Shown one piece after another: positions 8,701 through 39,518 of a stretch of DNA of 64,000 nt. Numbering within the stretch: position 1 is the stretch's first letter; each line of letters starts with the position of its first letter. This DNA comes from Psammoneis japonica (taxonomy: Eukaryota): assembly GCA_008632985.1 (NCBI GenBank), contig QPGO01000054.1:62001-126000 (forward strand). Direction: 5' to 3'. A program made the translations under genes and the position numbers. The notes beneath the pieces were generated by a model. That model saw only the letters and a list, made by a program, of their open reading frames with translations. It was not told the origin of the DNA and did not search any database.

Positions 8701-9083
8701 TCGACTCTGTGGTGTGGTAGGTTGGTTTAAGTCACTTCTGGTTCATTGTCAAGGAAAGATGACTTTGAGCTTGTGTTGCTGTTGAGCTTTTGGTTTGGAC
8801 CGCACCGTTGTTGGTTTGCTGCTGGCGGGGATTGTCATTTCCAAACGGTGAGTTGTCGCGCATCAGTAAACGCGCGGCGTGATCAAGGGCAGTTGGCAAT
8901 AGATGTTCCAAAATCAAAATGCCGAGCGACAGGCGACAGGCAAAGATCTTCTCCAAGGAAGCGGCGGCGATGATGGTATGTTGATACACGCCACCTCAAA
9001 CCTGCAGACACGTGCTACCATAACTTGTTGTTATTGATTTGAAAAGCATCTCAACTCCCAAGGCATGCAAACGGTCGATCAGC

Positions 9084-18601: not shown

Positions 18602-20093
18602 ATGAAGGGGAAAAGCTGCATTGCGTTTGTTTTGTTCTTGATAATATCATCCTGTTATGAAGATGTCGAAGGGTTTTCTTCGGTCGTTGGTCCAACGAGA
18701 ATCAGACGGCATTTATTGCGACTGCATGCCGACGACACCGACAGCAGCAACTCGGGTGAGGAGCATGGCGGCAGAGATGGACTTTCGAGAAGAGACGCCA
18801 TTGGTCTTGGTGTAACCGGCATAGTTTCTGTACTGGGAGGGAGTCAGCAAGCTTCTGCCTTTCCGTTTGGCGACAAGGACTCCCCATACAAACCCGCAAC
18901 TCGGCCCATGGCATATCGCGTGGACTCCACCAAGCCACCGACACTGCTTCCTCTCAATGCGAGAAAAGAAATTGCAGCTCTCAAGGGTATCGGACGTGGA
19001 CTGGGTACCAGTAAGGATCCTGTTATTGACGATCGAATCAATCTAAACAACGTGCTCAACAAGGCGGTTTACGGAACAATTGACGCGGTCAACTCTGTCG
19101 TTGCGCCAAAGGGCGATGAATCTAAATCAGGACCGGGGTATGCGTCGTTTGTATGCATGGGAGTCCCCAAAGACATTAGCAGTGAGGATATTGACTTGAC
19201 TCTTAGTCTGTTGAATGAAATTGCAAAGGCACGTAGCACCAGCGATGACATGGCCTTGGGTTTGTCGTTTGCACCCCTCAGCACACAGAGTGCGCTCGAC
19301 AGCTACATTCAAAACGGCAATGAACAAACCCTCACGGAAGCAATGACGAAATCGTCCGTGTCAGAATCAACTCTACAGCTATACTTGCCCTTGATGAGAT
19401 TTGCTCAATCTCGCAACGTTGCCCTCTTGGCGTTGGCGCCCGAAGCCGAGGATATTGAGACGGTTCGCAGTCAGGGACTTCAAAATGTCAATGTCGATCG
19501 CCGTGCCAACTACGTTGCAGACTCGGAAGGCTTTATAAGTTTGACGCAGGACCCGAAATTCAAACTGTACGCGGATCGATCTCTCTTGAAGGATTTTAAC
19601 CCCGATGCATCGTCCAAACAGGATAATCAGGGTAATTTCTTTGCGGAACGAATCCTGGTGCACGAGACTGCCGCCACGGCTGCGGCTCGCTATGCCGCCG
19701 CCAAGCCCGAATCGTTAGTAGCCATGGTTGTTCCGACTCCTGACGTTCGGTTCCTTGGTGGTATCAATGGAAGAATTCCTCGTCTTTGTCAATTCTTTAA
19801 TCCAGAGACAAACAAGGTGAACGAAGAAGCAGTTACAACGATACTCTTAAACCCGACAGCCAAGGTACGTCAAGTCTGTGTATGTGTTCTAAGATTGTAG
19901 AGTCTTGTGTTTTAGCTTAATTGCTGTCTGTGGTTTCTGCTGAATGCGACAGGAGACTTTGTCGTTGAGTCGATACCTACGGCTTGAAATCGGAACAGCG
20001 CCAGACACTTGGCAATATCAAAGCAAAGTTGCAGACTATCTTTGGTTTTCGAAAATGCCAAAAGTTAACACGATCCCACGGCTTATGAATTAG
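18602..20093 (+). CDS. Plastid/thylakoid-lumen-targeted protein, probably ChaN/DUF399-like; intron about 19865-19953
   Basis: Signal peptide ending VEG|FSS, twin-Arg SRRDAIGLG...ASA lumen signal, LYLPLMRFAQ and FFAERILVHET; GT-AG intron; last exon ends VADYLWFS...RLMN*. Confidence 0.7.
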
Positions 20094-20955
20094 CTATTAC
20101 TCTAGTAGAGAGCATTTCCTTTTCACTGTGGTCACGTGCGCCTGCAGCAAAGTAGCAGCTCGCTTGTGGTTGGACAAAGCACTCGCTTCTCCCAACCCAG
20201 AGCTGGACAGTAGTGCCAAAGGTAGGAAAGGTCGGAGCATTGTCTTTGCTTTTCAAAGCAATGATGGGAGAAGACACAAGAACTTTTCTGGCGCGACCGA
20301 CATCTCTCTAGATCTCTGGAGTGTACTCCCTAGACGGTATCCTCCTCCCACCACGTCGTACATTGACCATACCAAGGTGTCTTAGTCCTTATCGGTACAC
20401 TTTCGCTTTCATAGCGGTGTCCTGTGACGAGATGCATCGGAAGCCTCCTTGAAAAGTTCCCGGAAGAGCTTCTCAAGAAGATCACCAAGGCGCAGCGCTG
20501 TGGTGTGAACGGGCGTCTTATAAAACTCGGCCAAAGTCGTCCGTGACGATACTACTGGGATGTATCTTGGAGCGTCCGACTTTAGGGAAGATTATTGGTT
20601 TCAGTTCAATCGCGTTCGTGCTTGTGTGAAACCGGCAAACTACTCAATTTTCAGGGAGAAGAAGCCGAGTTGTCATCCCAATGAAGGCAGCAGAGTGAAG
20701 AACATATTCGTAAATGAGCATAATGTGGCTGGATGGAATGATCTTGTCAATTCTTGGTCAATTGTATTCTTTCTGATCAAGCCCCTCCTGCACTCAAACG
20801 CGACCTTGCTAATCTTGCCCTTTTAGAACTCAATCATGATCATACGGACCTCAACCACTGCCATGTTCTCTTGATGCTAGATAGTTGCTTTCCTTCATCA
20901 CAACTGCAAGCCCGTCTTCTTGGGTATAAATCACATTGAACATCCTATCAGCTAA

Positions 20956-21764
20956 TCAAAGAATCCCAGAGAAGCAGTCCATGTTGACATCAATTTTCCC
21001 GCCGGATGCTACAAGAGAGTCTACCAGGGTTTCCTGATCTTCAACCAAAAGAAAGAAGTCATCTCTTTGCTCATCGCGGCTCTTTTTCATTTCTTCGATG
21101 AGGGTTTTGGCATGATTCGGCCTACAAACAAACGGATATGCACCTGGAAAGCCCGGGTCAAAAATGCAACATCCCACCAGCTCGTTCTTATCAGAGCTGC
21201 GTAACTGCAGCGGTATCCGGTTACCAAGCTCCCGAGCCTCCAAAAATACTCCAGGGAACAGTCCTAACGAAGATTCGATTTCTGCTTCTTCCTCTGGCAT
21301 CACGGGTCTACACTCTGTCAGCCCTTCTGATGATGACAGCGTGCTCAAAATGTCCCATGTCAAATGTACTTCTGCTGCACCAAAACAGCGCTTCAGTCCA
21401 AACTTATGATACAATGCTACCGCTGCTTTGTTTTCGGGTACCACATGCAATCTCCAGCGACTGCATTGACGTGCCTTGAATTCCTTGACGACTGCATTCA
21501 GCAAGGCTGTGGCCACACCACGCCGCCTGTAACTCGCATCGACCATGAGATATTTCACTTGACCCTCTTCTGACCCAGTCGCTGCCCACCACCAAGTGTA
21601 TCCAATGGTTTTGTCGTCTAATTCCGCCACGAGGCTTGTAGGCATCATCTCCCTTGTCCAGCGCTCCAACCGTGGGGGCGGATTCGGATCGTCGAGCACG
21701 AGCCAAAGAGCCGCAACGTCAGCGTAGTCCTTCTGAGTTGCACTGCGAATGTGAAGCGCCATCA
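20956..21764 (-). CDS. GNAT family N-acetyltransferase, intronless
   Basis: Acetyl-CoA motif LMVDASYRRRGVATALL and LHVVPENKAAVALYHKFG; second domain FDPGFPGAYPF. Confidence 0.9.
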
Positions 21765-22266
21765 TTAGCGAGGTTATTGTCAAAAACGATAAGGAGAACA
21801 TGCATTGGAGAGGGATTTACGTGTCATTCCTCTCGCTTTTGCGTTGTTGTTATTGTTGTTTGTGTTGTTTCTTCTAAAACAGCAGAACCCGGAAACCATT
21901 CTCACAACATTATTTTGAACTCGCAACAGCGATGGGGTCACAACAATCGCAAATGAAACAAACAGATCTTCAAACGCTGTGGGACGTGGAGAATGCAGCT
22001 GATTAAGATGGGCCAGTGACCCAAAGGCTCATTGGGCCTGTTGGAGCTCAGACATGAGACGCTCAAAGAGCCGCTCAAGCGGTGTGAAGCACCTTGCAAA
22101 ACCTTTGCAAAAAAGGCTGCCCTCACCTCACCTTGGTCCTGGATGTCAGCAGGCATTCAGCATGCACTCAAAAAAATGCAGAGGCTGGCCCTCACATCAG
22201 AGAGGTAAGAAAGAGTGCATGAAATGCAGGCCACTGTTTGGCACTTTTGCACAGTGAGCACACTCT

Positions 22267-22677
22267 CTAATTCATTCTCATGTGGGCGCCCACCACTGCT
22301 GACTGAAATGCATTTCGCTCATTGGCAGTTGATCTTTTTTGTTTGTTGTTTCCACTTTCTTTTGGCGTGCACATGACTGTGCCCCAGGACCAAATTGTTT
22401 TGTTTTTTGGGTCTTGACTCAAGCACAACAACAGCTGTGACTGCCCGGCATCATTTTGTTCAAATGAAGACAGAGTTTCATTTGATTGTTGCCACACAGA
22501 CATTTTTCCATCAAGGAATTTTTCAAAATCATCATTGAATGTTGGCATGCTCGTTTGTCAGCCAGGGAGGGCAATGTCCAGAGCAAAGTAACCAGAAGAA
22601 AGCCACTTGGTCCATTGCATGAAACAACTTGTGTCACAGTTTTTTTGTCCTTGTTGTGAGACTTCCATTTGAATTTC
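22267..22677 (-). pseudogene. 3' part of a degenerate gene interrupted by the copia element (5' part at 28461 to about 29000)
   Basis: Removing the element joins two copies of an approximately 148-bp coding repeat (KFKWKSHNKDKKTVTQVVSCNGPSGF and KFVRKSHRNDKKTIVAQVTAHNGPSEF). Confidence 0.6.
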
Positions 22678-23010
22678 AGTTGAACCAGCAAATCAATGTC
22701 ACCAAACAGAAATCCCACCAGGCTTTCTGTGCTGCTTGTTGCACTTGCCTTGGTTTCTATGTCAGCTGCAGGTTGCCTGTGGTGCTGCAAAGCTTCTAAA
22801 CTGATGGTGCAAATGAGCACGCACCTGTCAACACTGAATGACAAATCTTGTGAACCAAATGATTCAATCCAAAGAGTGAGAACAAAATGAAAAACAAGGG
22901 TTGGAGATCAATGATGGTTCATTCTTGTTGAAGATCATTGTCATTCTTTACAACATCAGGACTCACCCACACATGTCGGAATTCCCTTTTTGACATCACA
23001 AACAGGATGC
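22678..23010 (-). repeat. 3' LTR of the copia element
   Basis: Aligns to 28117-28460 (tgtgctgcttgttgcacttgc, ggttgcctgtggtgc, ctgaatgacaaat, gatcaatgatggt); preceded on the minus strand by the purine-rich gacaggagtg. Confidence 0.85.
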
Positions 23011-26000
23011 ACTCCTGTCATCCTTTTGATTCTTAATTGCCTGTGATGGCTTGCTTAAACTTTCAGAACTTCTTGCCCTGCAACGGCTTTGTCATGAAGT
23101 CTCCAAACATGCCATCAGTTGGACAACACTGTGCTCTCAGGTTGCCCTTCTTTGCTTGATCAGCAATGAAGAAATGCCAAATGTTGAGTGTCCCAGACTG
23201 TTTCCCAGCACTCTTGCACCCATCAGTTGCCAGCAGTGTGGCACTTTTGTTGTCCTGACATGGGACATTCTTGTCAATTGGACAACCCTGGTGTTCCACA
23301 AACAACTTGCTCCTGAACTCCAGCTGGCTCAGCTTCTGTGCTGCTTTGGGCATTGAGCTCCTGTTGTTTGAACATTGTCTGTGCCCCTCCATCACCCATG
23401 GTCACAACTCCCCCTGTGCAGCTTTTAAAGTCCAGGTTCACCGCAAATGATGTGTCCACATGCCACTTGACAACTTGGAGGTCCTTTGCACTTAAAAAGT
23501 GGCAACTTCATTCCTTGTCCAGTTCAAACATTTGACACAACAGACTGGTTTCCCCCAATCCTTGTTGGTGAGTTCACTCACTTGCAATTGTGCTGCAGCA
23601 GCAGTTGGGTGCACATCTGTGTGGCCTCTCTTGGAAACAAACAGTCACTTGGCCACCCCTCTGTGGAAGGGTTGTGCTTTCTTCTTGGTCAGCAGTTGCA
23701 TGCTGCCAGTGTCAAACAGGTTCTCTGCAGCTGGCATCGTGGCAACATCCACACTCTTGATCTTCTCTGGGAACTTGTTGATCATCTTCTTGACACAGCC
23801 ACTCATGTCAACCTTCATTTTGCCCTTTGCACTGAAATCCAGGGTCATCCCCAGGCAGTTGTGCCTCTTTCCTTGAACAACAATGACCTCATTGTGGCTT
23901 CTGCACATCTTGTTGAGCCAGCTCAAGAATTTGTCATTGACCTTTGGGTTCCTGTGGCTTGACAACAGGTTGTCCACATGGAAATGAATCATGTGCTGTT
24001 TTCCATTGACATTTCCATTGGCAATGCAAGGATCACACAGGTTGAACTTAAGCCCAATTTTCTCCAAGTCTTTGCAGAATTGCTTGCACCACAGCAGAGC
24101 CATGACTGACATGCCACATGAGTCCCATGCAGCCCTGATGACTTGGACATGAAGGATGACTCTCTTCCCTTCTCCAGCCAGGACCACACATGGTCCATGT
24201 GGGTTGAAATCAATGCTCACAAGCATGTCAACCAACACTCCTGCAATCTTCATCATGATCTGGTCTTTGCCCTCCTTGGCAGGCTTTGGGATCAAAGTCT
24301 GCACAAATGTGTTGGGTGCATCAGTGTGCTCATTGTGTCATGCCCTTCTGCACCAGCATCAACGTAGGCTGTTGTTGGTGTTCCCTCTGGTTGTGACACC
24401 ATTGGGCTGGCTCAGTTGTCTTTGTCCAGCCATTGTCTTGTTGGTTTCTCATTGTGAACCTTTTGACCTCTTCTGCGACCATCTTGCTTCTCCACAAGGA
24501 ACACAAGAGCTGCCACAGCCCTTTTCCTCTCAGTCAGATTCACATCTTTAACTGACATTGGTGCAAAGCACACACTCTGTCATGGAATTGTCCAATCTCT
24601 TTTTCTGAGGCATCATGCCCTTTCTGGCCAAATGCTTTTGGACCTTTGTGCAGCAAATGCTTCTGGGCAAAGGAAACACCCTTTCCTGATTGGAGCTGGT
24701 CATTGATCTTGCACATGAACTGTGCCATTGTCATTTCCACATTTGAGTTGTGTTCCATGTCCTTTGGGTTTGGACTCATGTTTGTTCACAAATGGTGGCA
24801 GCACTCAAGTTCACTCCATTTACACTCCTCTTCAGTGGTGTTTGCCACTCCTGCAAACCAAACCTTTTTCTTCTTGTTGTTTGCCTGCAGGTGTGCTGGT
24901 GTGCCACAGCATTGCCAGAGGATCTGCCACTTCTGGTCCTCTTGGGTTCATCTTCTGATTTGTCTTCATCTTGGGAATCACCATGTCTTGCAACTCATCA
25001 CTGTCCTTTTTTGCTTCAGTGTCATCATCATCATGACAATTGCTTTTGGCTTTTGTGCTCTCATGCTCCTGTTGATTGGGTCTGGACCTTCCATTTGTGA
25101 GAATCTCACTCACTTCCTCACATTCATTGTCTGGGTTTTCTTCTTCATGATCTTAGTCATCAGAGTTTTGTCCTCATTTTCTTCCTCACTGTTGTTGCTG
25201 TCACTGTCATTGCCCATGTTGTCTGCTCCTGCAGTCCAATCAGCATTGCACATGTTGTCTCCACATTTGCCTGTAGATTTAAAATCTTTGATGCCTTGTT
25301 TGGTGATGCCATCTTCTTGACCACTTGTGCATGTGTGTTGGCAAGGGGTGCAGCAGTGCACTTGCAAGGGCTCAGGAGTTTCTTCATGTGCAGGTTTGTG
25401 GCGCAGCATCTGCTCTTTGGATTGTCAAAGTGTGGTTGCAGATGAACACTGACAGTGCCTCATGTGTCCATTGTGTTCATTGGATCTTTCCAGGCATGAG
25501 ACAGGACAAGAAATTCTCCAAAGGAAAACCAAAAGTGTTTGTTGCAGTTGAGGTTTCTGCATTGTGTGGTGGTGTGTGGGCTGTTTGAGTGTCAGCAATT
25601 TCTTCCTTTTGTAAGTGCATGTCAGTCATGACAGTGTTCTTGATTGCAGCATGCTTGTTGCACATTAACTTGGGTGATGCCTTGTGTGGTGGGTGGTGTG
25701 CAGTGGCTTGAATTTGCTCCTTGATGGTTTTGATGCTCTGCTCAACTTTCAAGCACAGTCCTTGGCATTTGTGCCAAAACATGGCCCTTGGTGTTTGCAG
25801 AAATCAACTCCAGATTCATGCCATCAGCAACTCTTCCCACAGCACCTCCTTTAACTTGGAATTGCACTCAACAAAATTGATCTTGAACAAAGCCATGTTG
25901 TGCTGTCACAAAATTGCATCCAGGGCACAGCACACATTGTCGTGCCACTTGGACTTCAGTTTCATGCTTGATTGGCATTTGACCGTCCAAGCAATCATGC

Positions 26001-28116
26001 GTGTGCTTCAATTTAACTTTGCATGCTTCCATGATGTCGATGCAGAGCATCATGCCCTCTCTTTGCCACTTGCAAATCTCCAGAGGAGTCACAATCATGA
26101 TGTTCCTCTCATGGGAATGATGTGCTTGTTTGATCTTGCCTTTCAAGGCATCCACTGGTTGGCTCCACATGGCCACCATCTTGTCCATGAAGTCTTTGGG
26201 TGCAAAGGACAAGTTCTTCTTCACCTGAGTGGATCACAAAAATTGCTTGAAGTCCCTCACACTTGGAATTTCAGCCTCATGATGCAGTCTGAGCATGTGC
26301 TCAGCATTTGCCACCTCCCTCTTGCAGCAGCCTGTGGTGGCACTTTGATCCATGGTCAGAACTGTGGTTCCTGATGCACTCCTGTGCTCCTTCTTCTTCT
26401 TCTTCTTCTTCTTCTGTTTCAACAGCATGCTTGCGTGAGACTCTTTCTCTTGAAACTCGTTGACACAGTCAAAAAAACTTCTCATTGGGTCTGAAAGCAC
26501 ACAGCCTGATGTCAACGATCTTGACTTGCCAGTCTTCTCATCCAGCAGGCAGAACTCATCTGAAGCTTGGTTGTTGCATGTGATGCAGCGCTTTTTTCTT
26601 CATGTCCTTCAAACTCAGGACATTTGCTGTTGCATTCTCTGACCCAAGCTTTGTGTCTCCCCATGATGGAATGGCACAGTCTTTGTCCAGTGCATCCACT
26701 CCTGCATTTGTGGGCAGATGATTGTTGTTCTTTGCCGGTTGCACAGTGTGCACAAACCTCCAGCTTGCTGCCATGCTGAGGGTCAATCATTGTTGAGGAT
26801 GATCTCATCCATCTTGATGTCCATGTTGGCTTGTGCCATGCTTGTTTCTGGTTGCTCACTTGTGAGTTGCAGCTTGTGCCATGCAGCACATCTGTTTCTG
26901 GCAGAACAGCTTGGTCTGTTGGATGTTGTGGTGTTGATGCTTGCACTGTCACCATCCACGAGTCTGTGCATGACTGTGTCCCCTGATGTCCAGCTTCTGT
27001 CCTGTGTCCTGAAACCAATTGTTCTGCAATGTGTCACCTTTGTGCAAGCAGCTTGGGGACTTGTGGCATGGCTCTGGTCTTTGCTGTTGCTGTTGTCATT
27101 GTTGCCATCCTCCTTCTTTTTGCCCTTTTTGTTGCTGTTTCTTGTCCTGATGCAGCTGTCCTTTGGATGGCTCAGCAATGCATTCGCAGCTGTCTCCAAG
27201 GTCTTTGGGCAGGAGGCATCCTTGTCTGGACTGCAGTCCCTCACAAAGCTCTTCTTGAGGCCCTTGCAACAATGACTGTTGCTGTGCTCTGAGAACAGGT
27301 GTGTCATCCACTTCTTGCATGCCTCATCCTTTCGCTGTCTCTGAGTGTCAGGATTTGCTTCTTGTTGTTGTTTTGTGTTGGCAATGAACCCATCAAACAT
27401 TTTCTTTCCCTGGCCTTTGCTCACAGCATCCTGCCAGTTCTTGAACCTTGACAAACAGTCATCACCTGTTCTTTTGTTCTCTTGCTGCCTCACATCCAGG
27501 AGGTTCTTCAGTGACTTGGTCAGCATGTGGAATGGATGACAACCTCTCATCGAGTCAAATGTCAGGGTCTGAATTGGCCTCAGCAGCTCAATCAGATTGT
27601 CCCTCAGTGCAGGACAGGCTGGATCATGTTGCACTTGTTGTCTCATTTGCCTGGAACAACAGTCATCCCATGTTGTGAAGAATGCAACAGTCTTGTTCTC
27701 TTTGAACTGCACAATCTTCTTGCGGCAATCATGCAATTCCTCCATGGTGCACCTCCACTCTGGCTCCTTGTTTTTGCACTCACACTGTTTTGGCAAGCTT
27801 TGGCAATTGGCGCCTCCTGGACCTGGTGCTGTCTTCTGGGACATCTTCAGAGTGGGTTTCTAGCAGTTGAAGTCCTTGCATTTTGTGTCCTCCAGTGATC
27901 TTGCCAGATGGACTCCTTGCTCATTTTCCTTCTGCATGTGTCAAATGATCCATTCAACATTGAAGGATGGAACTTCAGCTCAGGCTGAGAGCACTTCTTG
28001 TTGTTGGGACTGTCTGACCTGTGGCTCTTGTCATCTCTGTCTTGGCTGCCAACTTGGCCAGATTGCTTGCCACTCCCTCTGCCACTCATGGCACAGGAGA
28101 TCTCAGGGGAAGTGAA

Positions 28117-28460
28117 TGTTAAACCAGCAAGTCGGTGTTGCCAAAAGGGAATCCTTGCTGGGCTTCATGTGCTGCTTGTTGCACTTGCTGCCTTGGCTTC
28201 TGCATTGGCTTTGGGTTGCCTGTGGTGCCAATGTAAAACCTCTAAACTGACAACACAACAGGCACCTGTTGATGCTGAATGACAAATTGCGCAAACCAAC
28301 AAATGGCTCACTTGAAAGAGCAAAAACAAAACAAAAAACAAAGGCAGGGGGATCAATGATGGTGCACTCTTGTCAAAGATCATCATCATTCTTTGCTGTG
28401 CCAGGATTCAAAATTTCTTTTCTTCAACACTTCCAGGTCCCACATCTGGGTGTCCCAACA
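28117..28460 (-). repeat. 5' LTR of the copia element
   Basis: Canonical TGTT...AACA termini (tgttaaacc...cccaaca), immediately upstream of gag start MSGRGSG at 28089. Confidence 0.88.
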
Positions 28461-29049
28461 ATTTCACCCTGTCAACTTTTTCTCTCCTCCCTTGGCAAAG
28501 TCCAATGCAGTGTCAGTGGGCAGCCACAAATTCACTTGGTCCATTGTGTGCTGTGACTTGTGCCACAATTGTTTTTTTGTCATTTCTGTGAGACTTTCTC
28601 ACAAATTTCACCTCATCAATTTCTGCTTTCTTTGTTTTGACTGATGTCGACAGGGTGAGATTTGTGTGCACACCCCACAGGTGAGGAGAGGGCTGGAGGT
28701 GGCCATGGGGAATTCTCCTGAGCACCTTGTGGCTCCCTTTCTCAGTTCAAGAATGGCAGCAGATGGAGAGGAAAAAGTGTCAGACCCCTTTTCCAGCAAT
28801 TTTGAAGACTTTGCTGGTGATGAAAAAGAACAAGAGGCCATCTCTTCTCACTGATCACAGCACAGTGCAGGGAGAATGGAGCTGCTGCTGGCAATGACTC
28901 TCTTTGCAAACAATGAGCAGAAGGTGGCTGTGATGTCACCAGAAAAAATTGCACTTGTGTCACTCTCAAATGCAGTCACAAACAACTGAAATGTTTTTGC
29001 AACTTGGGGGGGGTGCAATTTTGAATCCACACAACTTTTTTCAGGTCAA

Positions 29050-32000
29050 GAGAAAACACAAAACAAGGAGGCCAACTTGCAACAATGCAAAGCAGCACCA
29101 CAGCATGTCACACACAACACAAAAGTTGTGAGAAAACACAGCAATTGCAGCTCAGAGACAGACCAGTCTCTGAGTGAGCAGACGCCGATGATGACAAGGT
29201 TGGCAGAGACATTGTCAAGGGTGAGAGACCACATCAAAGAAAAAGAGCCTCTCTGAGCATCACACTCACATTTGATGCAAAGCAATTTGAGGAAACAGGC
29301 ATGCTGTGTGAAGACAAAATTTGCTGCAAGTGTCATTGAGCAAGATGGAAAACCAACTCCCACATCTTGCTGTTTCTCATGATGCAGGGGTGCAAGAAGA
29401 CAAAGAAGCAAGAACTCTCTGCTCTGAGGCCAACAGATGTTGCAAGCAAGCTTGAGAGCATCATCAACAAGGGTTTCATGGAAACAGAAGTTGTCATGAA
29501 GAAGGGAAAGTGTGCAAGACACTCAAGCACTTTGCAGCAAGCAACTGGAACCCAGCAGAGGAAGACACAGGCAGAAGATGATGCAAAATGCCAAGGAAGA
29601 GCAAGGGATGGTTGATGAGAGCCAACAAGTTCTTCTGCAAGCTGTTCATGGAAATCAAACAAGACATTGCTTCAAGTGAATGACTGCTCCTCTGCTGACA
29701 GGAAGATTTGCACAAAAGAGCTGCAGCCAACTGTTGAAAGCAAACAGGAAAAGAGCTTGATGACTTGGGTGGTGAAGGAGACCACATGACAAGCTGCACC
29801 AAGATCTGTGAACTGGAGCCAGTGGTGGCAGTTTTGCAGACAAAAACCCACAAGCAGAATTTTTTTCATTGTTCAACATGAGATTCCAAGGCAACGCTCC
29901 ACTCCAGAAACTGCACTTTAGACAGCAACCATCAAGTTGAACATTTTGGGGGTGCAAACTTGGTGAGTTTTGCTGCACACTGACTGGGTTGACAAGATCT
30001 TGATTTGAAATCATGCACTCACACTCACACACCTTTTCTTGGACTGCAGTCCACTTTTCTTGGACTGCAGTCCACTCATCAGTCAGGGGGGGGGGGAGAT
30101 TCCCAAATTTGCCCCCCCCCGATGCCATGCAGTGGCTTCAGCCAATGCTCAGCAGACAACACAAACACTCAAAAAGTGCACTGGTCAGCAACACAACAAC
30201 TGCTCTTTGGGCATGCACAAGCATTTTGCAAATGCAAAAAGCAAAGTTCTTGCTGGCTGTTGTGGCAAATGTCCCCATTGGAAGCACGGGCTGCTTCTTC
30301 AACAGGCAGCCACCATTTTACATCAAGCTTGCTTCCAAAGACATGTGCAGTCAAATGCATGTGTGGAGAAAAGCCACCAAGAACCCAAGCCTTCAAATTT
30401 GCAAGGCAATCATGTGTGGATGATGTTCAATGACTGAACTCCAGCAGATTTGGCTTGCAACAAGAGCAAAACAATCAACTTGCGCACCTTTGGCAAAGAG
30501 CTGAAGTGGCCACATCAACAAAGATGATGATGTGTTCTTTTTCAAAAACATCAATGGAGATTTTTGTGAGCTCCATGCAACAACAACAAGCAAAGTGATT
30601 CAGAAACCCACATTGTTCCTGTGGTGTTTGCCATTTCAAAATTTTTGAGAATGGCGGGGGGAAACCAGCAGCGGTGTTTCGCTCTCACATTTGTGTGGCT
30701 TTTGCAAACCCCAATGCAGTGCATCAGTTGATTTGGCACAGTGCAAGCTCCAAACTCCAAGATTTCTTTTCCTCCAACCTTCATGCACCTCACTGCATTG
30801 TTGCATCATGTGTCACCCCCCTCACACACCCACAATGGCAGAAAAAACCACAAAGCCCACCATCACTGCAGTTGCATCACACAATGTCACAGTTTGGGAT
30901 GATTGGGCTCAATCAATTCCATGGCTGCACATTTGTGAAATTAACAGAGAGGGCTTTGACCACCAAAAGCAAATGCTGAGTCAGAATTTGACCACAGCAG
31001 CACACAAAAAGCAGAAAAAGAGCCCAGAAGGAATTGGAAGCAGCACATGAAGCACATCCTTTGCAAGACACAAGCAACAAAAAATCAACACAGCAGTGGC
31101 TGTTTGAGACTTCTGAATTGTACAAAATGGCAGCCTTTGGTGCATGCATTGGCAAAGCATGTTTTGCAGGGCACAATGCAATTGACAAGCTTTTTTGTGG
31201 TGGCTTTTTTGGTGGACATTGTGATGCAAGTTCTGCACAAAGCTGCCCAAGGCATGCGTGGTGCACAGCTTGTCATGGAAATGGCTTTTTTTTTAAGAAA
31301 TGGCAAGAAGAATCAGAGTGCATGTGAGCCATCCTCTTTTGCATTGCAAACACATTGGCACACCTTTCCTCTTGTTCAAAATGCTGTCTGTCTCATTTGG
31401 CGCCTTTTTTGGAATGGCACAAATGTGGATTGTGTGTTGCAATGGATCCTGGCACTCCAGCTGAGATTTGTTTAGCCTGAATGGCATCCATGGCCGGGGA
31501 TGACAATGTCTTGGCTGGCACTTTGTCCATCCTTGCCCTGTGCTGGTGTGCACATTGCTGAGTTTTGTCCTTCGCTGAAGACATTTGGAGATGTGCAACG
31601 TCTTTCTTTGGTTGCCAACTGTTGTGCAGTTTAATTCTAGCCTCACTCTTCACCCACTGCTGCTGTTCATCTCCAATCACAGTCAGCATCTTCATGCAAG
31701 AAATGGACAAGCAGTGGTGCAGTGGTTGGCAAGCTGCAGAGAGATTTGATCCATGAACTGCTTTGTGTCCGATTCCAGCACCACTTTGCCCCATGCACAA
31801 GAGAGTGAGGGGATTGGTTTGTCCCATGAAATTGCTGCAGCAGCTGGCAGGGAAGTCATCAGTGAATCCACAATGTTCACATCAAACAGTTGCTGTCATG
31901 CAAGCAACATCACCTCCTGTTCCATCACTGGGACAGGTGAAATTCAATGAGTTGATTGTGCAAAATCAGAGTTGCAAGTCATTTGAGCCACTCACAAATG

Positions 32001-33950
32001 CCAATGATTTTCACAGTTTGGAAGAAAATGAGTTGGCAAAAATGCATGCAAGCATGGCTGGCAGAATTGCAAAACTCTCACAAGCCTTGAAAGAGCCCTT
32101 CATGAAGCAGAAGCAGCCCAATGAGGAGTTGCAACAAGAATTTGAAGCCAGGCTCAACTGCTTTGAGAAACTTCATCTCAAGCAACATCAACAAAATGGC
32201 ACTGAGTCACAACAAGAGTTTGGTGCAAGGAGAAACTTTTTCAAGCACCACAACAATCAACAGCTGGACAGAGAGCAAGAGACAGCATTTTTTTACAAGC
32301 CCTTTGGTTGCCATGCAAGAACACAACAAAATTGCACCAACAAAAATGACCAATCCTGGGGAAGCATGCAAAGCACAAGCAATTCCAAACAGTCGCCATG
32401 ATTTGATGCGTCCAAGGTGCCAACACTGCATCAGATGCCAAGGTGCAATGCCTGCTCTTTTGTGAAAAGTGCAGATGAGACCATTGACCCCAGCCTGCGT
32501 GGGTGCACAACTGCAGAACTGTCCATGGGCAATCAAATCAGAAGACTGTTGTCACCAAAGCAGATGACCTTTTGCAGGTTTTTGGAGGCATTGGTTTTGT
32601 CTGAGGGGCGTGCCTTTTTAGGTGACATCTTAATGGCATTTAGACCAAACAGGTTGCTTGTGGGAAGTGACATGAAAGCATCCATTCCCAGCCTTTCAAA
32701 CAAGTGTGATGCAAAAGCCACAGAAGACTCCTTCAAAGCAGATGAAATGTCAGACTCACAGCACACATGTGCAACTGCAGCTTTTGAAATGATGGTTTTG
32801 AAGACAAGAACTTGACTCAGGAACAATTGCAGTGTGTCTCAAAAAAATTGTGCATGGCCATTGAATCAGGACAAAGCCAATGACGAGGCTGCTGCCCAGG
32901 GCCCCATTGGAAGGTTGTTGCTGGGGCTGACACAATGGCGACACAGGAAGCTGCCATGAGAAAAATGGTTTCCAGCAAAGAGCTCTCTCACTCTGATGAA
33001 ATGCTTGCTTTGGAGTTGCATCAAAAAGTTGTTGCCAGAAAGCACACAAGACCATCAATCAGAAGCAAGCCTTGACCTCAAACATCCCACAAGGGAAAGC
33101 ATCAAGCAATGCAAGGAAAAGCTTTGACACACTGGTTCATTTGCTGCTGAGGCTGCAAGCATGACCCAACAAGAGAGAAAGCCATCTTGAGTTGCTGTTG
33201 ACAATGTGGTGTCCAGCGCAGACTTTGATGTAGACCAGTCTGATGTGCACATCAAGTTGTTGTCAGGGGAGGACATCATGCCCAAAAAAAGGAGTTGTCA
33301 TCACTGGAAATTCAGCACATTGTTGCAGACAGAGGCTTGGAGAAGTCAGAAGAAGTGACGCTTTGGGAAATGACCAAGAGACAAGATCTTGCTCATGAAG
33401 AGACCAAGAGAAAATCAAGGCAGCTGCTGCTTTGCCAGATTTTTGTCTTGAACAATGACTTGCAGCTCAACAGCAAGAAAGCTTTTGTCTGATTGGTGTC
33501 CAGGAGTCAGGATCTTGCTTTGGAAGAGGAGGCTCTTGCCAAGTCTACAAGCCAACAAATTTCATTGAGCAAATGCTTGGCACAAAAAAGAAGCTGCAAT
33601 GCAGAAGGTGGTGTCAGGGGATGCTGTTTCTGATGAGGAAGTCCAGCTGCCTTTTTGGGCATGCCAGAAAATGTCCGAATCCAGATGAAATGTGCTTGGC
33701 AAGTCTCATGTGACAAGAGTGAGAGGTGACAGACATCAAGACAGGAGAGGTTGCTGTGATGATGCTTCAGAAAGTGCAGGCAGGAAAATCAATGAAAGCA
33801 AGAAGGGAGGCCATGCAGAAAATGGTGTGTGGCAAAGAGCTCTCTCAACAGAAGACACTTTAGACAGCTGGTGCAATGCAAGCCACAAACTCTCTCCAAC
33901 ACAAATGCATCCACAAACAAAATGAAGGTTGGGACAGAGTCTGGCTTCAC
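29050..33950 (+). pseudogene. Degenerate coding remnants of unidentified TE(s) or gene(s)
   Basis: Chain of broken plus-strand frames with protein-like composition once some Cys/His are read as Tyr (31034-31327, 31763-32401, 32417-32815). No family motif confidently recognised. Confidence 0.45.
30033..30074. repeat. Exact 21-bp tandem duplication, each copy containing the 14-bp palindrome TGGACTGCAGTCCA
   Basis: cttttcttggactgcagtcca at 30033-30053 and 30054-30074. Confidence 0.95.
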
Positions 33951-34183
33951 CAGTTGCTGTTCTGACAAGGACAAGAGCAAAGAAGAAGACTTCTTTGACC
34001 CCTTTTGAAAACTCAATGTCACTTAAGATCAGGAGAGCAGACTTGGACTTCCAAACTCCTCTGCAGAGTGAGAGGATCCCATGATGGTGTGCCAGCCAAC
34101 CTGACAACCGCAAACTGAGGTCATTGGTGGTGTCTGGTGGACCCCATGTGACAGTTTGAGAACTGTGGCTGGGCATTGCAAGG

Positions 34184-34467
34184 CCCAGTTTCTGCCCACC
34201 ACCAAGGGCATCCAATGGTTTTGTCATCTGGCTCCACCACAAGGTTTGTGGGCATGTCATCATTTCCCTTGTCTGGTGGTGCTCCAGCCATGCTGGGGGC
34301 GGGGTCGGACGGTCGAGGAGCACGAGAGCCAAAGCAAGCTGCAACATCAGTGCAGCCCTTCTGAGTTGCACTGCAAACATGATGAAGTTGGAGAGTGGTT
34401 CACGTGTTGTTGTGATGCTTTTTGACCTCACTGCTGCTCCCTCGTCCGGCAGCCAAACCCGGAAACC
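34184..34467 (-). pseudogene. Truncated, mutated duplicate of the GNAT 5' CDS and upstream region (source 21574-21897)
   Basis: Shared blocks ctgcccaccaccaag, atccaatggttttgtc, ccttctgagttgcactgc, ttggagag, aacccggaaacc in the same order and orientation. Confidence 0.92.
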
Positions 34468-34999
34468 TTGCAAGGTGTGGTTTTGTCGCAGACAATGCTT
34501 TGCCATTTGCCATTGCCCATTGCCAATGGCAGACTCTAGAGCAGGCCCAACGCTGCATCTCGCTCGCGATTGCTCATGATCGCGATGACACAGCACCGCT
34601 TTACCTTGCACTCTAGAGAGTGGACTCTAGAAGCAGCGGGAGCATCCATTGAGGGCTTGCAGTGCACTGATGCAAAGCAACCCATCGCCCTACGAAACCA
34701 TGAGTTCAGCATCATCTACGCTTGTCCGGGGGATGATCCATCGTTGCCATGAAGTCAAGCCTTCCAAAGTGTGAGAAGTGTTTTCGCAAGGACGGCGTGA
34801 CATCTGGGCATCCCAACCCATGTTTCCCGGATTTTTCTTTTCTCCCATGCCCCATGCGAGACTTTGTTCTTGATCCGACCCTTTGCTGTCTCTGCCACTC
34901 TTGCTCCCCTCTTGGGAGAACGAAGCGATGCCATTGCTGCCCGTGTGTTTCGTGTCATGCCAGCACCAGCACGGCTTGTGCACAACAAGAAGGTTGACA

Positions 35000-36090
35000 A
35001 AAAATGACAACAACAAAGACGGAGTGGGAAGCACGGCGAGGAACTCAATCATGCATGTTGTGCCTTCCTCAAAGACTCCAAAGTTCACGCCTCCGTCTGA
35101 CATGCAAAGTGCTTTTGTGGGTGCCATTGCCTTTACGTGCAGCACCATTTCAGATGTTGTGTCGGCTGCCATGATGCCTGAGCAAATGAAAAAAAAGGTT
35201 CGAAGCCATGGCGCGACTCAAAGCTCACCCATTTGGATGCATCTGGTGTGGGAGATGAGCTTGAAGAGGTGAGCCAAGATGTTGCATGGACAACAGAAGC
35301 TGACTCATTCCCGCTTTTTCAATTTTCAGGCCCTCATGAAACCCATGTTGTGAGGGCGTTTGCTTGACAATGTGAAGATCTTGAATGACATCCAGGAGAA
35401 GAATGACGCTGATCATTGCGAGAAGGCTCAGTCTCGCAATGTCAGCAACATTGATGAAGAAGCCAAAGAAGGAAATCGATGCATGAGGTTCGCTGCAGCA
35501 GGCAAGGCGCGCACGCACACAAGTCTTCAATTGTGCTTTTCCAACTTTTGTTTGACTCACTCAACCATCTCCAAAACATCGACATTCCCAGCTTGCACAA
35601 CCGAAATGATTCGGAGCGCCATTGACAAAGAGGTCCATCCAGAAGAATTGCAAGATCAAAAGACGGCGATTGCTCGTCATGCCATGACATCTCCTGAGGA
35701 CGTGAAACTCTTGTGCGCAAAGGACGACAGCAATGACTGCCATGTTCTGCACCACTTTGTAGCTGTGGACACAGAAAACGAGTCAATCGTGTGGTCATTG
35801 CGAGGTGCACCATCAATGTCTGGATCCATCGTGGACATTCAGGGCATGGAATGTGAGTGGCAGGTGTTTCTCATGCTGCGTTCTCACTGCAGGCACAGAA
35901 CGAACCCGGTCATGACAGGCGAAACCTGCAAACAAGGAGTCTCAATGGCCCATGCGCACAGCACGTTCAGTGATCACTTTTACTTTACACCGAGATTGCA
36001 GACTTTTTCGCATCCCGTTGGTTTTCTCAACCGCTCAGGCAACTGCATGAGGCATGCCTGAGCATGGGGCATGGCCAAGATCCCGCCCCC
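35000..36090 (+). pseudogene. Class 3 lipase (DAG-lipase-like) pseudogene
   Basis: CMRFAAAG (cf. YMRFA.AAYG), HFVAVDTENESIVWSLRGAPSMSGSIVD (cf. IVLSIRGT.S..D), GMAKI; no catalytic GHSLG found; stops and frameshifts. Ends approximate. Confidence 0.65.
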
Positions 36091-37787
36091 AGGTGTTCCG
36101 CACCGGCACATTATGACAATCGCGAACAAAACCAGTTTTCTCATCGCCAAGCTGCGTTTCTTCCTGTTGTGAATCGAAGTGGACCAGGCAAAGGCAAGCC
36201 GGAGCACAGCCGCAATTCACTCATCTCTCGTGCAGAGCAATGAGTCCAGATGCCCCGTCGAAACTGGGTGCTGCAGCACCACAGCCGCAGCCGAGAAAGT
36301 TCGACAGCAGGCACTTGTGGAATCATCTTGAAGCTCTTGATCAATGACATCGTTGTGATTTTTCCGGCGCTCGACATGTTCACAGGTTGCGCACCTTTCG
36401 ACAACATCTTTAATTCTCTCCGCTTCATGAAAGACTGCTGAAGACAAGACGTCTACTCGCAAAAGCAACAGTGCGTCGAAAACAGCAGCGACGGCATCAG
36501 AGTGCCGTGCGCGAGAGTTACGACCGTCAACATGGTCCATTGACGTACGTACGGAACAAATGGCATGCAAATAAAGATTGCTGTGCTGCACTTTTAGTCT
36601 TTCCACTTCTCTGTTGTAAAGGTTCAAAGTGTGTTTCGAATGTTTGAAACACGCCAATGTCAAAAGTTGATGGAAATTGGTCGCGTGGGATTACATTGCC
36701 TCAAGAGCACCATCATTAGATGGCGCTCAAGCTTTTTCCTATTTTTGGGGTGGAAAACCACCCCAAAAAAAAGAAAAAGGGGGGACGTGCTGCGGAGACA
36801 GCAAGAGAAACTTGCGAGTCAACCGCGTGCTAAATCAACACTCCCTGCGAGTGAAGACTTGCCGCACCACATCGCTGATGCAACGGAACCCCAAACCCCG
36901 CGTTCCGTCAATGGAACGATCTGCTCAGTGAGCTTTTGCTGCTTCGCAGACGAACGCTGCTGTCTGTTTCAACAGCCGTGACCTGACGGGTCAAGCGAAC
37001 AGGCAACTTCCTGCGGTCAAAGACACAGGAGTGACATGGGCTCCAGGCCGGAGACACACATTTGATTTGCCCTGACCTCCGGACTTAACTGGCAACACCT
37101 GCGCTGCCGATTTCAACAGCACACTTGTGCTGAAGCAACTTTGACAAAAAAAGAGAGACAAACCGCCAGCATTGGAATCAAGCTCAAGGTGAGCTGAGGA
37201 AAAAGAAGGACTCAATCACATCGTGCGGGTTGACAAATTGAAACTGAAGCAGTTCCCTCTTTTTGTCGCTCCTCCGACATCGTCAGTTCCCATCTCGAAT
37301 GATGAAGCGAAAGAGAAGTGCTTGATCCTTCTCCACGGACGGAATGCCAGCCTGAAACAGACGGTGTCGACGCTCCACAGGTGGGGTTCTTTACACTTCT
37401 CTTCACCCATGGCACCATCATCGTTCCCGCACCAATCACTGATGATTCCCTTGCGGCGTTTGTGCGGAGATGAACAGATTTTTGAAAACGGGCGTCGTTT
37501 GAAAATGGAGGGAAATGATGTGGCTGGAAAACCAACGGGTGTGTTTTACTGTCACATTTTGTGTAATTTGTGCGAACCCCTACGACGTCAGCCGAACTTC
37601 AAACAGCGCGAGCTCCGAACTCCAGATTTCCTTGTCTCTCCACTCCACACACACCGCACCGCATATTCCTACTACCGTACTACCCATGGTGGACGGCGTT
37701 CGTCATCATGTCAATGTCGTGCTGAACTTCACCGGTATCATAACATGCTAAAAGCACCCTTAATCATAGGCTGAAGTAGGGATAAGA

Positions 37788-38625
37788 ATGTTTCATCTCA
37801 TGAGATCGTATCGGTGTGGCGGATCAAAAGGTCGGCGATACCGATGGATGACAGGCAGATCGGCATCGAGTCGTCGGCCCAATCCGTTGTTTGTCAATGC
37901 GAGCAACGCCCCGGATGACTTTGATCCATCCGGAGCTGTGGTTTACGACTCCTTTGTATCACATGAAGAAGGAGAATCTCTAGTGTCTGATATAATGGCT
38001 CGAATGCGTCGGTAAGCTACGTGAGCTTCATCCAGAAAAGTGCCTTTTTACTTCCGACACATACACACTCACAACCTACTTCTGTTGATGCAACGCCACT
38101 AGCCGTCGGTACGAAAAGGGACACTGGGATGCAGTCATTACGGACTACAAAGAAGTGGAGCTCTTGGATGAATCCGTACTTGGCGACGCTTCCAGAACTG
38201 CAATGGATCGTGTTCGAGAGCAATTGTTGACCCATCATTTGCCCACTTCCAGAGAAGAAATTACGTTTCTGCCGTGTCACGCGATTGATTTGAAAAAGGA
38301 TGGCGAGCTCAAGGCTCATGTCGACTCTATCAAATTCTCTGGAGATGTCGTTTCCGGAATTAGTCTGCTATCTTCCAGTATTATGAGACTCAGACCAGAA
38401 ACAACGCAACAACGAGGCAATGATTCAGAGGAGCAGTCGGAAGGATGGGTCGACTTGCATCTTCCACCCTTGTCACTCTATGTTTTATCAGGATCGACTC
38501 GATATCATTACACACATGAGCTACTTCCCTCTGGCTCTGTCTTTGAAGCGCCCGACGGAACAACTGCGACGGTTATTCGTGATCAACGACTCAGTGTGAT
38601 TTTTCGTGATGCCAAGGATTCGTAA
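37788..38625 (+). CDS. ALKBH7: AlkB homolog 7-like 2OG-Fe(II) dioxygenase; intron about 38012-38102
   Basis: RRYEKGHWDAVITDYKEVEL; HAIDLKKDGELKAHVDSIKFSG; SLLSSSIMRL; RYHYTHELL; RLSVIFRD. Confidence 0.88.
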
Positions 38626-39518
38626 ATGGTATGTGGTGTGCTAGTAGCTCTCATTACGTATTGCTTGAACGTGGTTCCTTCTCTTTGGATGGCTCTTGAT
38701 TAATGCATATATGGAATTACCGTCTGACGTACGAGTTCGCGCTTGTATTGAAAGGACGACGACACTGCGGCTTGAATGAAGCTTCACAAAAGAGAAACTC
38801 CTGTCTGTTCATTATACTCTATTGATCTATCCAGATTCCATTGCACTCACTCCCATCTTGTCTTGTTCTTCTTGCAATCAAGATCCGGCTTTGCGACCTT
38901 TGTCGTTGAGCGGGCAGGCTTTTTCGTGCTCTCCACGTCACAGTCACACCGGTATTCATTTCAAAATGTCACCGGGGAAGATCAGGCTGGAGCTCTGTTT
39001 TGTGATTCGTAGACACTTTTTGTCACTTGTCTGTAACGGATGGTGACACAATCGTTGCTCGAGACGCAAATGTATGGTCATTCATGACATTCTTCTCACA
39101 TTGGTTAGAGTATTTCGCTGCTTTCGAGTGCCGGCAAGCACGAACTATGGTAATATTGCAAGCCTCAAACGAATCGTCTGTTTGTTTGAAAGTATCGTAG
39201 GTGTTGTGAATGAAAATAAATAGTAAACTGCTCTAGAGTACCGGTACCGGTAATAGAGTACTTAGTATCGATCATATCATTGGTAACAGCCTCTGCTCTG
39301 CCAGACTCTCGTCATCTGCCCATTTGGGCCATCGCGCGGACCACTCATTTTTTTCTGCACGGGGACCAATAAGTTCACGTTCTCAGGTCAATTTTTTTTT
39401 CAAGAGATAACGAAGCTGTTGCAAGCTCAAGAGCAATAGGCGGAACAAAAGAAGTGCATTTCTCTAAGGTAGTTTATCAGAGAAGAATTATCTTTCTTTA
39501 AAATTTCGCAAACAAAAA

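Follow-up and report, generated by a model that had tools for sequence, protein, structure and literature searches.

What has removed nearly all TpA steps, and most of the CpG steps with them, from one block of a diatom contig? The block lies in a 64,000-nt stretch of Psammoneis japonica contig QPGO01000054.1, which is referred to here as the window. It extends from 21,950 to 37,600 and contained 0–2 TA per 200 bp in most intervals, compared with 4–12 outside. Counts in 200-bp intervals placed a sharp left border at ~21.95–22.0 kb and an equally sharp right border at ~37.6 kb; the genes on either side both have their 5' ends towards the block. A preliminary description of this DNA had reported a sharply bounded TpA-poor domain of ~15.6 kb with excess TG/CA, in which TpA fell from 14 to 1–2 and CG from 19 to 2 per 420 bp; our counts (16 to 1.4 and 24 to 2) agreed with it. 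The block was not of low complexity and held just two small tandem arrays. Its DNA was multi-copy: 1417 contigs of sequencing run X1 were related to positions 19,500–39,000, and an X1 contig break with loose ends at 21,974–22,003 coincided with the left border. Run X3 gave no matching contig. As for the proteins, the named best matches of the flanking HPP protein were all from diatoms (28–48% identity), and diatom leads for the HA-domain protein were weak in an Atlas search (scores 0.76–0.79).

The block consisted of two parts. In the core (22,000–34,000), TpA and CpG were both depleted ~11–12-fold; in the edge (34,001–37,600), TpA was depleted ~5-fold and CpG was nearly normal. Core densities were 3.4 TpA and 4.8 CpG per kb, versus 38.5 and 56.8 per kb in the rest of the window. 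The 12 kb of core contained 41 TA and 58 CG, where the background rate predicted ~462 and ~682, and it contained 1362 TG and 1361 CA. Observed/expected ratios in 1-kb intervals were 0.01–0.09 (TA), 0.04–0.20 (CG), 1.66–1.90 (TG) and 1.70–2.39 (CA) at 22,001–34,000, and 0.43–0.83 (TA) and 0.74–1.29 (CG) elsewhere in the window. The share of pyrimidine-purine steps stayed constant (0.235 in the core versus 0.240), and the combined loss of TA and CG (87/kb) approximately balanced the combined gain of TG and CA (82.5/kb). Core GC content was lowered by 1.8 points, with 1.7 predicted from the TA and CG conversions. The two changes roughly offset each other in GC, as first suggested. The CpG loss originally ascribed to the domain held for the core but not for the edge, which at 34.4–37.6 kb contained 7.4 TA/kb and retained 47.4 CpG/kb, with a GC content of 51.1%. 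Dinucleotide ratios were 0.09 for CG, 0.98 for CC, 1.12 for GC and 1.08 for AA. TT and AT, like AA, were not depleted, and GC-biased gene conversion was rejected for this reason.

Two further patches in which the same texture had been noticed were real but weaker. The second patch (7,200–8,500) had 0–3 TA per 200 bp and partly lowered CpG. TG far exceeded CA there (225 versus 137 at 7,001–9,000), and a homolog search with its ORF at 7,667–8,290 found none. The third patch (63,400–64,000), which is truncated by the end of the window, had 3, 0 and 1 TA and 6, 2 and 0 CG per 200 bp.

The texture is a mutational footprint of TA>TG/CA plus CG>TG/CA. This direction, proposed at the outset, was confirmed by a mutated gene copy and by the codons of a reverse transcriptase (RT) remnant. 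The intact GNAT acetyltransferase gene flanking the block (20,956–21,801, minus strand; Pfam Acetyltransf_1, E 9e-19) had normal TA (5–7 per 200 bp) and was used as the unmutated reference. A degenerate copy of its 5' part was located at 34,184–34,382 (minus strand; 76% identity to 21,574–21,754). In this copy, TA had changed to TG or CA at all 4 sites and CG at 8 of 13, with 3 CG kept; TG was retained at 10 of 12 sites and CA at 14 of 15. The footprint was restricted to the repeat block and halted at the flanking genes. The multi-copy contigs and the borders bore out the earlier claim of repeat targeting as far as confinement to repeated, non-genic DNA is concerned. The part of that claim that implied RIP-type homology pairing was unsupported: RIP mutates both duplicates, whereas the intact GNAT gene was untouched despite ~180 bp in common with the mutated copy, a length that is possibly too short. 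A TA-depleted, lipase class-3-like pseudogene (34,690–36,058, plus strand) had five relatives at E values between 5e-31 and 5e-13, of which one carried PF01764, and two of its conserved Tyr residues (in AYG and LY) had become Cys. An X2 contig matched 34,690–35,856 of this pseudogene and omitted 35,267–35,327, a 61-nt segment with GT..AG ends.

A hypermutated Ty1/copia-type pol remnant, running from the reverse transcriptase to the C-terminus, was located with RT relatives by tblastn at 22,934–24,875 (minus strand). A full-library HMMER search with ORF 23,648–24,337 (minus strand) found 2910 library relatives at E ≤ 1e-3 (best 1e-60). Pfam gave no match for the ORF itself; RVT_2 covered the aligned part in 8 of the 9 relatives tested. 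Judged by this resemblance, part of the core is Ty1/copia, with RVT_2 assigned indirectly, through the relatives. We compared the remnant at 87 columns conserved among 150 relatives. All 7 conserved Tyr were replaced (5 Cys, 1 His, 1 Trp), whereas replacements affected 13 of the remaining 80 conserved columns (Fisher p = 1.3e-5 for the Tyr excess). The actual codons accounted for 16 of the 20 replacements, 9 by TA>TG/CA and 7 by CG>TG/CA, and 4 fitted neither process. When 18 long copia relatives were used in tblastn, the window matched solely at 22,934–24,875, with no hit at 24.9–37.6 kb or in the second and third patches. Pfam scans gave no credible family in 18 large ORFs, in the 115 ORFs of at least 70 aa in the block, or in six frames of 22.9–28.2 kb with stops read as X. 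An origin could be assigned to no more than 1.9 kb within the core and ~1.6 kb within the edge.

The mutations occurred in place, at the DNA level, after duplication. Two LTR-like direct repeats, repeat A (22,679–22,965) and repeat B (28,118–28,410), lie 5.44 kb apart, and A abuts the pol C-terminus on its downstream side. Over 282 aligned positions they differed by 59 transitions and 10 transversions, with 16 CA<->TG flips. Adjacent double transitions numbered 23, versus 11.9 ± 2.8 in 10,000 shuffles, 2 of which reached 23; 21 of the 59 transitions lay outside flips or retained CG/TA. The repeats may be an LTR pair, a tentative reading because an additional 61-nt match (22,604–22,664/28,533–28,596) is not collinear with them. 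A second genomic copy in X1 showed 5 CA<->TG flips relative to the window over ~190 nt, and it had CACA at a site where the window retains CGTA. Between-copy differences in X1 comprised 1013 transition places and 327 transversion places. A 1035-nt X1 contig, with a word depth of 71.5, had 0 differences from 21,974–23,008 of the window, which answers the basecalling question raised earlier; X1 may be the source data of the assembly and therefore does not count as independent sequence support. TpA conversion was strand-symmetric: TG equalled CA in the core, and the scatter of the per-500-bp TG-CA z value was 1.35 inside the block and 1.25 outside.

The conversion followed a tetranucleotide rule, in which ATA/TAT is hottest and TTAA is most refractory. 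When the four depleted regions of the window were pooled, observed/expected counts were 0/49 for ATAT, 0/103 for ATAC, 2/76 for ATAG and 5/85 for ATAA, and the GTAC context was also erased. The count for TTAA was 21/21.7; its ratio depends on the reference: 1.07 with the window background, ~0.5 when copia relatives of normal composition serve as the reference, and 0.20 for the metagenomic segments. Depleted metagenomic segments totalling 15.3 kb ranked the contexts in a similar order.

The losses of TpA and CpG can be separated. The same footprint was found in contigs of unrelated metagenome assemblies, and Tyr-free RT relatives were present in public data. For the homologous RT segment, all four combinations of TA and CpG loss occurred: TA/CG counts were 30/24 and 29/31 in normal metagenomic relatives, 1/29 and 1/27 in two relatives with TA-only loss (L012, L018), 24/3 and 16/6 in two with CpG-only loss (L025, L014), and 1/1 in the window. 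Within the window, CpG loss was found solely where TA loss was complete. Together with the edge, these relatives upheld the view that CpG decay and the TA process are distinct, and the separable losses point to a second process and not to a variant of the first. Depleted relatives showed a bias of CA>TG towards the sense strand over whole segments; it was inconsistent in the homologous RT part and was dropped.

A 2026 preprint on Bigelowiella natans (Mettrop et al., bioRxiv 10.64898/2026.01.13.699255) has reported A:T>G:C hypermutation, at TpA only, in viral DNA that had integrated from NCLDV and virophage. According to that preprint, the genome contains 124 TpA-poor, CpA+TpG-rich clusters; the two viral regions acquired 231 mutations, of which 230 were A>G or T>C and all of these lay on TpA; and the de novo rate in mutation-accumulation lines was ~1000-fold above that of the genome. 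The essentials of the preliminary description stood; its remark that it knew of no described system with this signature is outdated by this preprint. A full-text literature search found no further report of TpA-specific DNA hypermutation, and a term search of Maumus 2009 (PMC2806351) gave nothing on hypermutation. In both organisms TpA changes to TpG or CpA by strand, regionally, in foreign or non-genic DNA and with a gain in GC; the B. natans clusters are described as enriched for RT and DDE domains, and ADAT2 is proposed there as a candidate. The two cases differ in host, a diatom (stramenopile) here and a chlorarachniophyte (rhizarian) there, and in target: a copia retrotransposon and multi-copy pseudogene-bearing repeats as opposed to single-copy viral insertions. 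The footprint here is saturated (TA o/e 0.01–0.09 versus a Rho of 0.45 given for the NCLDV region), and our evidence is a fossil footprint, whereas de novo mutations were measured in B. natans. The edge and the relatives with TA-only loss match the TpA-only pattern of B. natans; the core does not, as CpG loss overlies TpA loss there. The main text of the preprint mentions neither CpG loss nor a flanking-base rule.

We propose, with a probability of about 75%, that two separable transition processes, each with its own sequence context, mutated the DNA of the transposon and pseudogene repeats in situ, one driven by a deaminase and one by 5-methylcytosine (5mC). The first process converts TpA to TpG or CpA (A:T>G:C) on both strands about equally and has reached near saturation across the whole 15.6 kb. 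Our leading guess for its enzyme is a putative ADAT2/TadA-like DNA adenine deaminase, which would be recruited to silenced or foreign chromatin and would change adenine to hypoxanthine in DNA. It appears to be the same kind of targeted hypermutation as in the B. natans lines, an analogy drawn from the signature, because no CpG component is described there and the targets are single-copy viral DNA. The second process converts CpG to TpG/CpA and is saturated in the 12-kb core alone. It is most likely 5mC deamination in DNMT5-methylated transposons, possibly aided by RID-related DNMT4, which occurs in 31 of 60 diatoms without known function. Diatom transposable elements are reported to be CpG-methylated via DNMT5a (PMC9998398).

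The same targeting and footprint with another chemistry, either a modified thymine at TpA or error-prone repair synthesis, is unlikely but is the strongest competitor. TpA is palindromic, so that A>G is indistinguishable from T>C on the opposite strand and thymine chemistry fits equally; TG also equals CA. For example, TET/JBP-type oxidation to 5-hydroxymethyluracil could be followed by mispairing or misrepair to C. In dinoflagellate DNA, 5-hydroxymethyluracil reportedly prefers TpA and TpC, which counts for a modified thymine; a literature search found no evidence of thymine modifications of this type in diatoms. Glycosylase-driven repair should add transversions, whereas transition places predominated among the X1 copies. 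Pol-eta-type WA>WG mutation, an earlier suggestion, is disfavoured: it predicts an AA loss that is contradicted by the AA ratio.

A single programmed machine for both changes, such as a dual A/C deaminase or a deaminase combined with RID-like DNMT4, is less probable still. It would make CpG loss part of the defence instead of passive 5mC decay. The confinement of CpG loss in the window to sites of complete TA loss and the distribution of DNMT4 among diatoms fit such a machine, and amphioxus ADAT2 is described as performing both C-to-U and A-to-I DNA deamination (PMC10354150). However, the edge lost TA yet kept CpG, each loss occurs alone among the metagenomic relatives, and the changes reported in B. 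natans are at TpA alone.

A-to-G editing of retrotransposon RNA at UA by an ADAR- or ADAT-like enzyme, fixed by reverse transcription and reinsertion, is largely refuted and very improbable. It would suit the copia part of the core, and A-to-I RNA editors are noted to prefer U at −1 (bioRxiv 10.64898/2026.01.13.699255). It is contradicted by the equality of TG and CA, with Tyr becoming both Cys and His; moreover, 16 flips separate the two direct repeats of a single insertion, a host-gene fragment was also mutated, and the mutated lipase pseudogene retains the 61 nt that the X2 contig skips. Finally, it is hardly credible that the texture is a base-calling artefact on modified DNA, or that this is foreign DNA always kept TA- and CG-poor by selection: although X1 is possibly the assembly's own data and the sequencing platform of the window is not given, an artefact is contradicted by the accurate-read contig that matches the left border exactly, other copies carry CA for the window's TG, each at single-locus word depth, the footprint recurs in unrelated metagenome assemblies, and conserved Tyr codons and the intact GNAT gene prove an ancestral TA.

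The proposed two-process mechanism can be compared with other systems. Like RID/DNMT4-dependent fungal RIP, it involves dinucleotide-specific transitions that destroy repeats, spare neighbouring genes and leave a compositional scar. RIP changes CpA to TpA, producing a TpA excess and lower GC, whereas TpA is erased here (11-fold depleted, with CA enriched 1.6-fold), and the earlier characterization as the opposite of RIP was correct. CpG/TCG hypermutation has been reported in basidiomycetes (PMC3318451). CG>TG/CA changes in the core, with the other C contexts spared, resemble 5mC CpG decay in vertebrates and plants; that decay explains neither the TpA loss nor an edge without CpG loss. APOBEC/ADAR footprints in retroelements, as described in PMC4866542, are likewise clustered deaminase-type transitions in mobile elements, but they are strand-specific, favour other contexts and are introduced into cDNA or RNA in the course of retrotransposition, whereas the changes here are symmetric, made in place and present in non-retroelement DNA too.

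The diatom host, the retrotransposon and pseudogene targets, the saturation, the tetranucleotide rule and the Tyr-free RT relatives in public data are new here. The same signature in a diatom indicates that the TpA process is no one-species curiosity and that its targets extend beyond viral insertions to retrotransposons and duplicated gene fragments. Coding capacity can be wholly destroyed, with all Tyr codons lost and TAA and TAG stops removed. The process escapes GC-content and RIP-index scans and makes transposon proteins undetectable by Pfam, and thus diatom repeat annotation may be systematically incomplete. The flanking-base rule provides a fingerprint for testing candidate enzymes, and diatoms have genetic tools. 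A broader idea, possible though doubtful, is that an ancient SAR-wide defence, shared by diatoms and chlorarachniophytes, uses a chromatin- or RNA-guided TpA adenine deaminase that obeys the tetranucleotide rule (ATA/TAT hot, TTAA spared) and is paired in diatoms with RID-like DNMT4 or 5mC decay. If true, its two arms would together serve a function analogous to RIP by removing both self-complementary pyrimidine-purine steps from invading DNA, and the metagenomic copia relatives that lack Tyr would be the widespread fossil traces of its action.

Dinucleotides were counted across the window (GC 48.1%, N = 0). In the core of the depleted block (22,000–34,000), TA occurred at 3.4 per kb (41 sites), CG at 4.8 per kb (58 sites), TG at 113.5 and CA at 113.4 per kb; the corresponding counts in the rest of the window were 38.5, 56.8, 73.3 and 71.1 per kb. 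Observed/expected ratios per 1-kb window in 22,001–34,000 were 0.01–0.09 for TA, 0.04–0.20 for CG, 1.66–1.90 for TG and 1.70–2.39 for CA, against 0.43–0.83 for TA and 0.74–1.29 for CG outside the flagged regions. The remaining dinucleotides all stayed within a factor of 0.78–1.24. The share of pyrimidine-purine steps was unchanged (0.235 in the core, 0.240 in the rest), the fall in TA plus CG (87 per kb) was balanced by the rise in TG plus CA (82.5 per kb), and the GC shift of −1.8 points agreed with the predicted −1.7. The sequence was not of low complexity, and the block had sharp limits, at ~21.95–22.0 kb on the left and ~37.6 kb on the right. The counts and boundaries confirmed the bounded loss of TpA and CpG with an excess of TG/CA claimed in the preliminary description; its recurrence at 7.2–8.5 kb and 63.4–64.0 kb was also real, though weaker than in the main block. 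An addition to that description is the edge at 34.4–37.6 kb, where TA was depleted (7.4 per kb) and CpG retained (47.4 per kb). The TA-depleted patch at 7,200–8,900 showed a strong strand asymmetry (TG 225 versus CA 137, and G 30.5% versus C 21.0%, over 7,001–9,000), whereas the main block was symmetric; the ORFs of this patch yielded no Pfam family and no homolog in our searches.

The flanks placed the window in a diatom, not in Bigelowiella. The named best matches of an HPP-family protein were all diatoms (28–48% identity), and the HSF and HA-domain genes, whose families are typical of diatoms, fit these matches. Elsewhere in the window, a gene for an LRR protein (43,146–45,278) contained an ordinary 72-nt tandem duplication (44,214–44,360, 82% identical) coding for repeated LRR units. 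Inside the block, a Pfam search found no family. A full-library HMMER search with the ORF at 23,648–24,337 (minus strand) returned 2910 relatives (best E = 1e-60), and RVT_2 covered the aligned part in eight of the nine relatives tested. Using 18 long relatives, tblastn placed a Ty1/copia-type pol remnant at 22,934–24,875 on the minus strand, the sole match in the window. Direct repeats at 22,679–22,965 and 28,118–28,410 flanked the remnant, and one repeat directly adjoined the C-terminal end of pol; they may be LTRs, a reading kept tentative by a further 61-nt match that falls out of collinear order. Recognisable in the edge were 180 bp copied from the adjacent GNAT gene (20,956–21,801, minus strand) and a lipase class-3-like pseudogene.

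From sequencing run X1, 1417 contigs with a likeness of at least 85% mapped to 19.5–39 kb. The summed X1 word depth, which does not equal copy number, was 180–780 in the block versus 67–75 over the GNAT gene, and a contig break with loose ends at 21,974–22,003 coincided with the left boundary. The contig number, the raised depth and the break together indicated that the block is repeated DNA. By far the highest summed depth (~4000) was found at 36,426–37,076, a TA-depleted stretch with normal CpG that contains a 48-nt imperfect palindrome (36,732–36,779) and probably marks where a highly abundant element ends. Depth was also elevated across the 5' region of the GNAT gene (21,453–22,103; 374) and over the right flanking gene (37,700–39,000; 160–194, with a second contig bearing 35–57 differences), which could reflect paralogues or a diverged second haplotype.

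To follow the direction of change, copies were compared with their relatives. Relative to the intact GNAT gene, all four TA sites were altered in the copy (two to TG, two to CA), 8 of 13 CG sites had become TG or CA and three were retained; TG was kept at 10 of 12 sites and CA at 14 of 15. The reverse transcriptase (RT) remnant was compared with 150 relatives over 87 conserved columns. All seven conserved Tyr were substituted (five Cys, one His, one Trp), compared with 13 of the 80 other columns (p = 1.3e-5); at the codon level, TA>TG/CA accounted for nine of the 20 substitutions and CG>TG/CA for seven, leaving four unexplained. The lipase pseudogene likewise had Cys in place of two conserved Tyr. 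If they are LTRs, the direct repeats started out identical when the element inserted. Over 282 positions, they now differed by 59 transitions and 10 transversions, among them 16 flips (CA in one copy where the other has TG, or the reverse). There were 23 adjacent double transitions versus 11.9 ± 2.8 in shuffled data, where 2 replicates of 10,000 attained 23. Ancestral sequence of 0.29 kb is expected to hold ~28 CG and TA sites, and an independent choice of TG or CA in each repeat would yield ~14 flips, close to the number observed. Another genomic copy in X1 showed five flips over ~190 nt and read CACA where the window retains CGTA. These comparisons indicated that the ancestors had TA and CG, and that conversion followed duplication and took place separately in every copy.

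RT relatives were surveyed as 50%-identity cluster representatives, taking the 150 best of 2910. In twenty of these, Tyr was missing from every conserved Tyr column, and Cys or His stood at all or all but one (overall Tyr 0.23%, Cys 4.0%, His 4.9%, Arg 3.4%); 93 retained Tyr (Tyr 3.83%, Cys 1.4%, His 3.0%, Arg 5.2%), and 37 were mixed. Ten of the relatives, most of them lacking Tyr or poor in it, derived from Logan and ENA assemblies. Scanning metagenomes yielded 27 loci, reduced to 23 by removal of the near-duplicates L005, L022, L023 and L026. Eight of the 23 carried nine TA-poor segments (at least 800 bp, at most 3 TA per 400 bp; 15.3 kb in total), with 2.3–6.7 TA and 18–63 CG per kb. Over the homologous RT segment (~650 bp), TA/CG counts were normal in L001 (30/24) and L002 (29/31); TA only was lost in L012 (1/29) and L018 (1/27), CpG only in L025 (24/3) and L014 (16/6), and both in the window (1/1). 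All four combinations being present, the two processes are independent. Sharply bounded TA-depleted segments in microbial-mat contigs (L020:1–2850, L017:251–3300, L018:101–1850; 2.3–3.4 TA per kb) retained CpG (33–45 per kb), L020 returning to normal TA within ~500 bp. In the copia relatives L025 (3501–6500) and L014, CpG was nearly absent (2–8 per 500 bp in L025) and TA normal (18–24 per 500 bp); these are cases from another host in which CpG has decayed in the absence of the TpA process.

Residual TA contexts, pooled over four depleted regions with the window background as expectation, followed a flanking-base rule. Observed/expected numbers were ATAT 0/49, ATAC 0/103, ATAG 2/76, ATAA 5/85, GTAC 4/55, CTAC 11/97, CTAG 5/38, GTAA 17/86, CTAA 14/60 and TTAA 21/21.7. 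An additive flank model fitted these data, with A 5' of TA (equivalently T 3') hottest, G and C intermediate, and T 5' (A 3') coldest. With normal copia relatives as reference, TTAA in the core fell to ~0.5, still the highest context. The metagenome segments ranked similarly (ATAC 0/72, ATAT 0/48, GTAC 0/45, TTAA 8/40, CTAA 16/51), their counts being biased downward by selection for low TA. CpG contexts were fairly uniform (0.04–0.26).

Adenine deamination by an ADAT2/TadA-like enzyme is our tentative reading of the TpA chemistry, at a probability of about 0.45. A thymine-modification or repair route is less likely, and the rest of the probability goes to something unknown. Pol eta-type synthesis (WA to WG), an earlier candidate, is argued against by the fact that AA was not depleted.

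The readings as a sequencing artefact and as RNA editing were also examined. A 1035-nt X1 contig matched 21,974–23,008 with 0 differences at a word depth of 71.5; the platform of X1 is not on record and the run may be the assembly's own data, so this match is perhaps not independent. However, the same kind of footprint was present in contigs from unrelated metagenome assemblies. Editing of an RNA intermediate is opposed by the strand balance of the core (TG 1362, CA 1361, with local TG–CA scatter no larger than background), by the occurrence of both Tyr to Cys and Tyr to His within single relatives, and by the flips found between the paired repeats of a single insertion. In the lipase pseudogene, 61 nt that a contig of run X2 skips with GT..AG ends are still present, which suggests a DNA-level duplicate, conditionally since the kind of run X2 is not on record.

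The proposal that, beside CpG decay, a second mutagenic process acts specifically on TpA and is targeted to particular regions was right in essentials, TA and CpG loss being separable. The TpA process is the opposite of fungal RIP, which creates the TpA that the block has lost. The preliminary description knew of no such system, but a precedent exists in Bigelowiella natans, the sole description of a TpA-type signature found in our full-text literature searches (bioRxiv 10.64898/2026.01.13.699255). According to that preprint, 231 of 302 nuclear mutations in mutation-accumulation lines lay in integrated NCLDV and virophage regions; 230 of the 231 were A>G or T>C, all are stated to fall on TpA, and the rate was ~6e-7 per site per generation. 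It reports 124 genomic clusters of TpA-poor, CpA- and TpG-rich windows, enriched in RT and DDE domains, and proposes ADAT2 as the enzyme; CpG, diatoms and the wider sequence context go unmentioned in its main text. Diatom TEs are described as CpG-methylated through DNMT5a, and RID-related DNMT4, of unknown function, as present in 31 of 60 diatoms (PMC9998398); the CpG arm could rest on either. Methylation is predicted for the core but not for the edge.

The block is thus a further case of a very recently described kind of hypermutation. Its signature is that of B. natans, but it belongs to a different SAR lineage, targets retrotransposon and pseudogene repeats, is saturated, is overlaid by CpG decay and has a flanking-base rule. 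TAA and TAG have been erased from 22,000–37,600, and with TGA as the sole remaining stop, spurious ORFs as long as 358 aa arise on both strands. Pfam is blind to the real RT remnant, and these ORFs would mislead gene finders.
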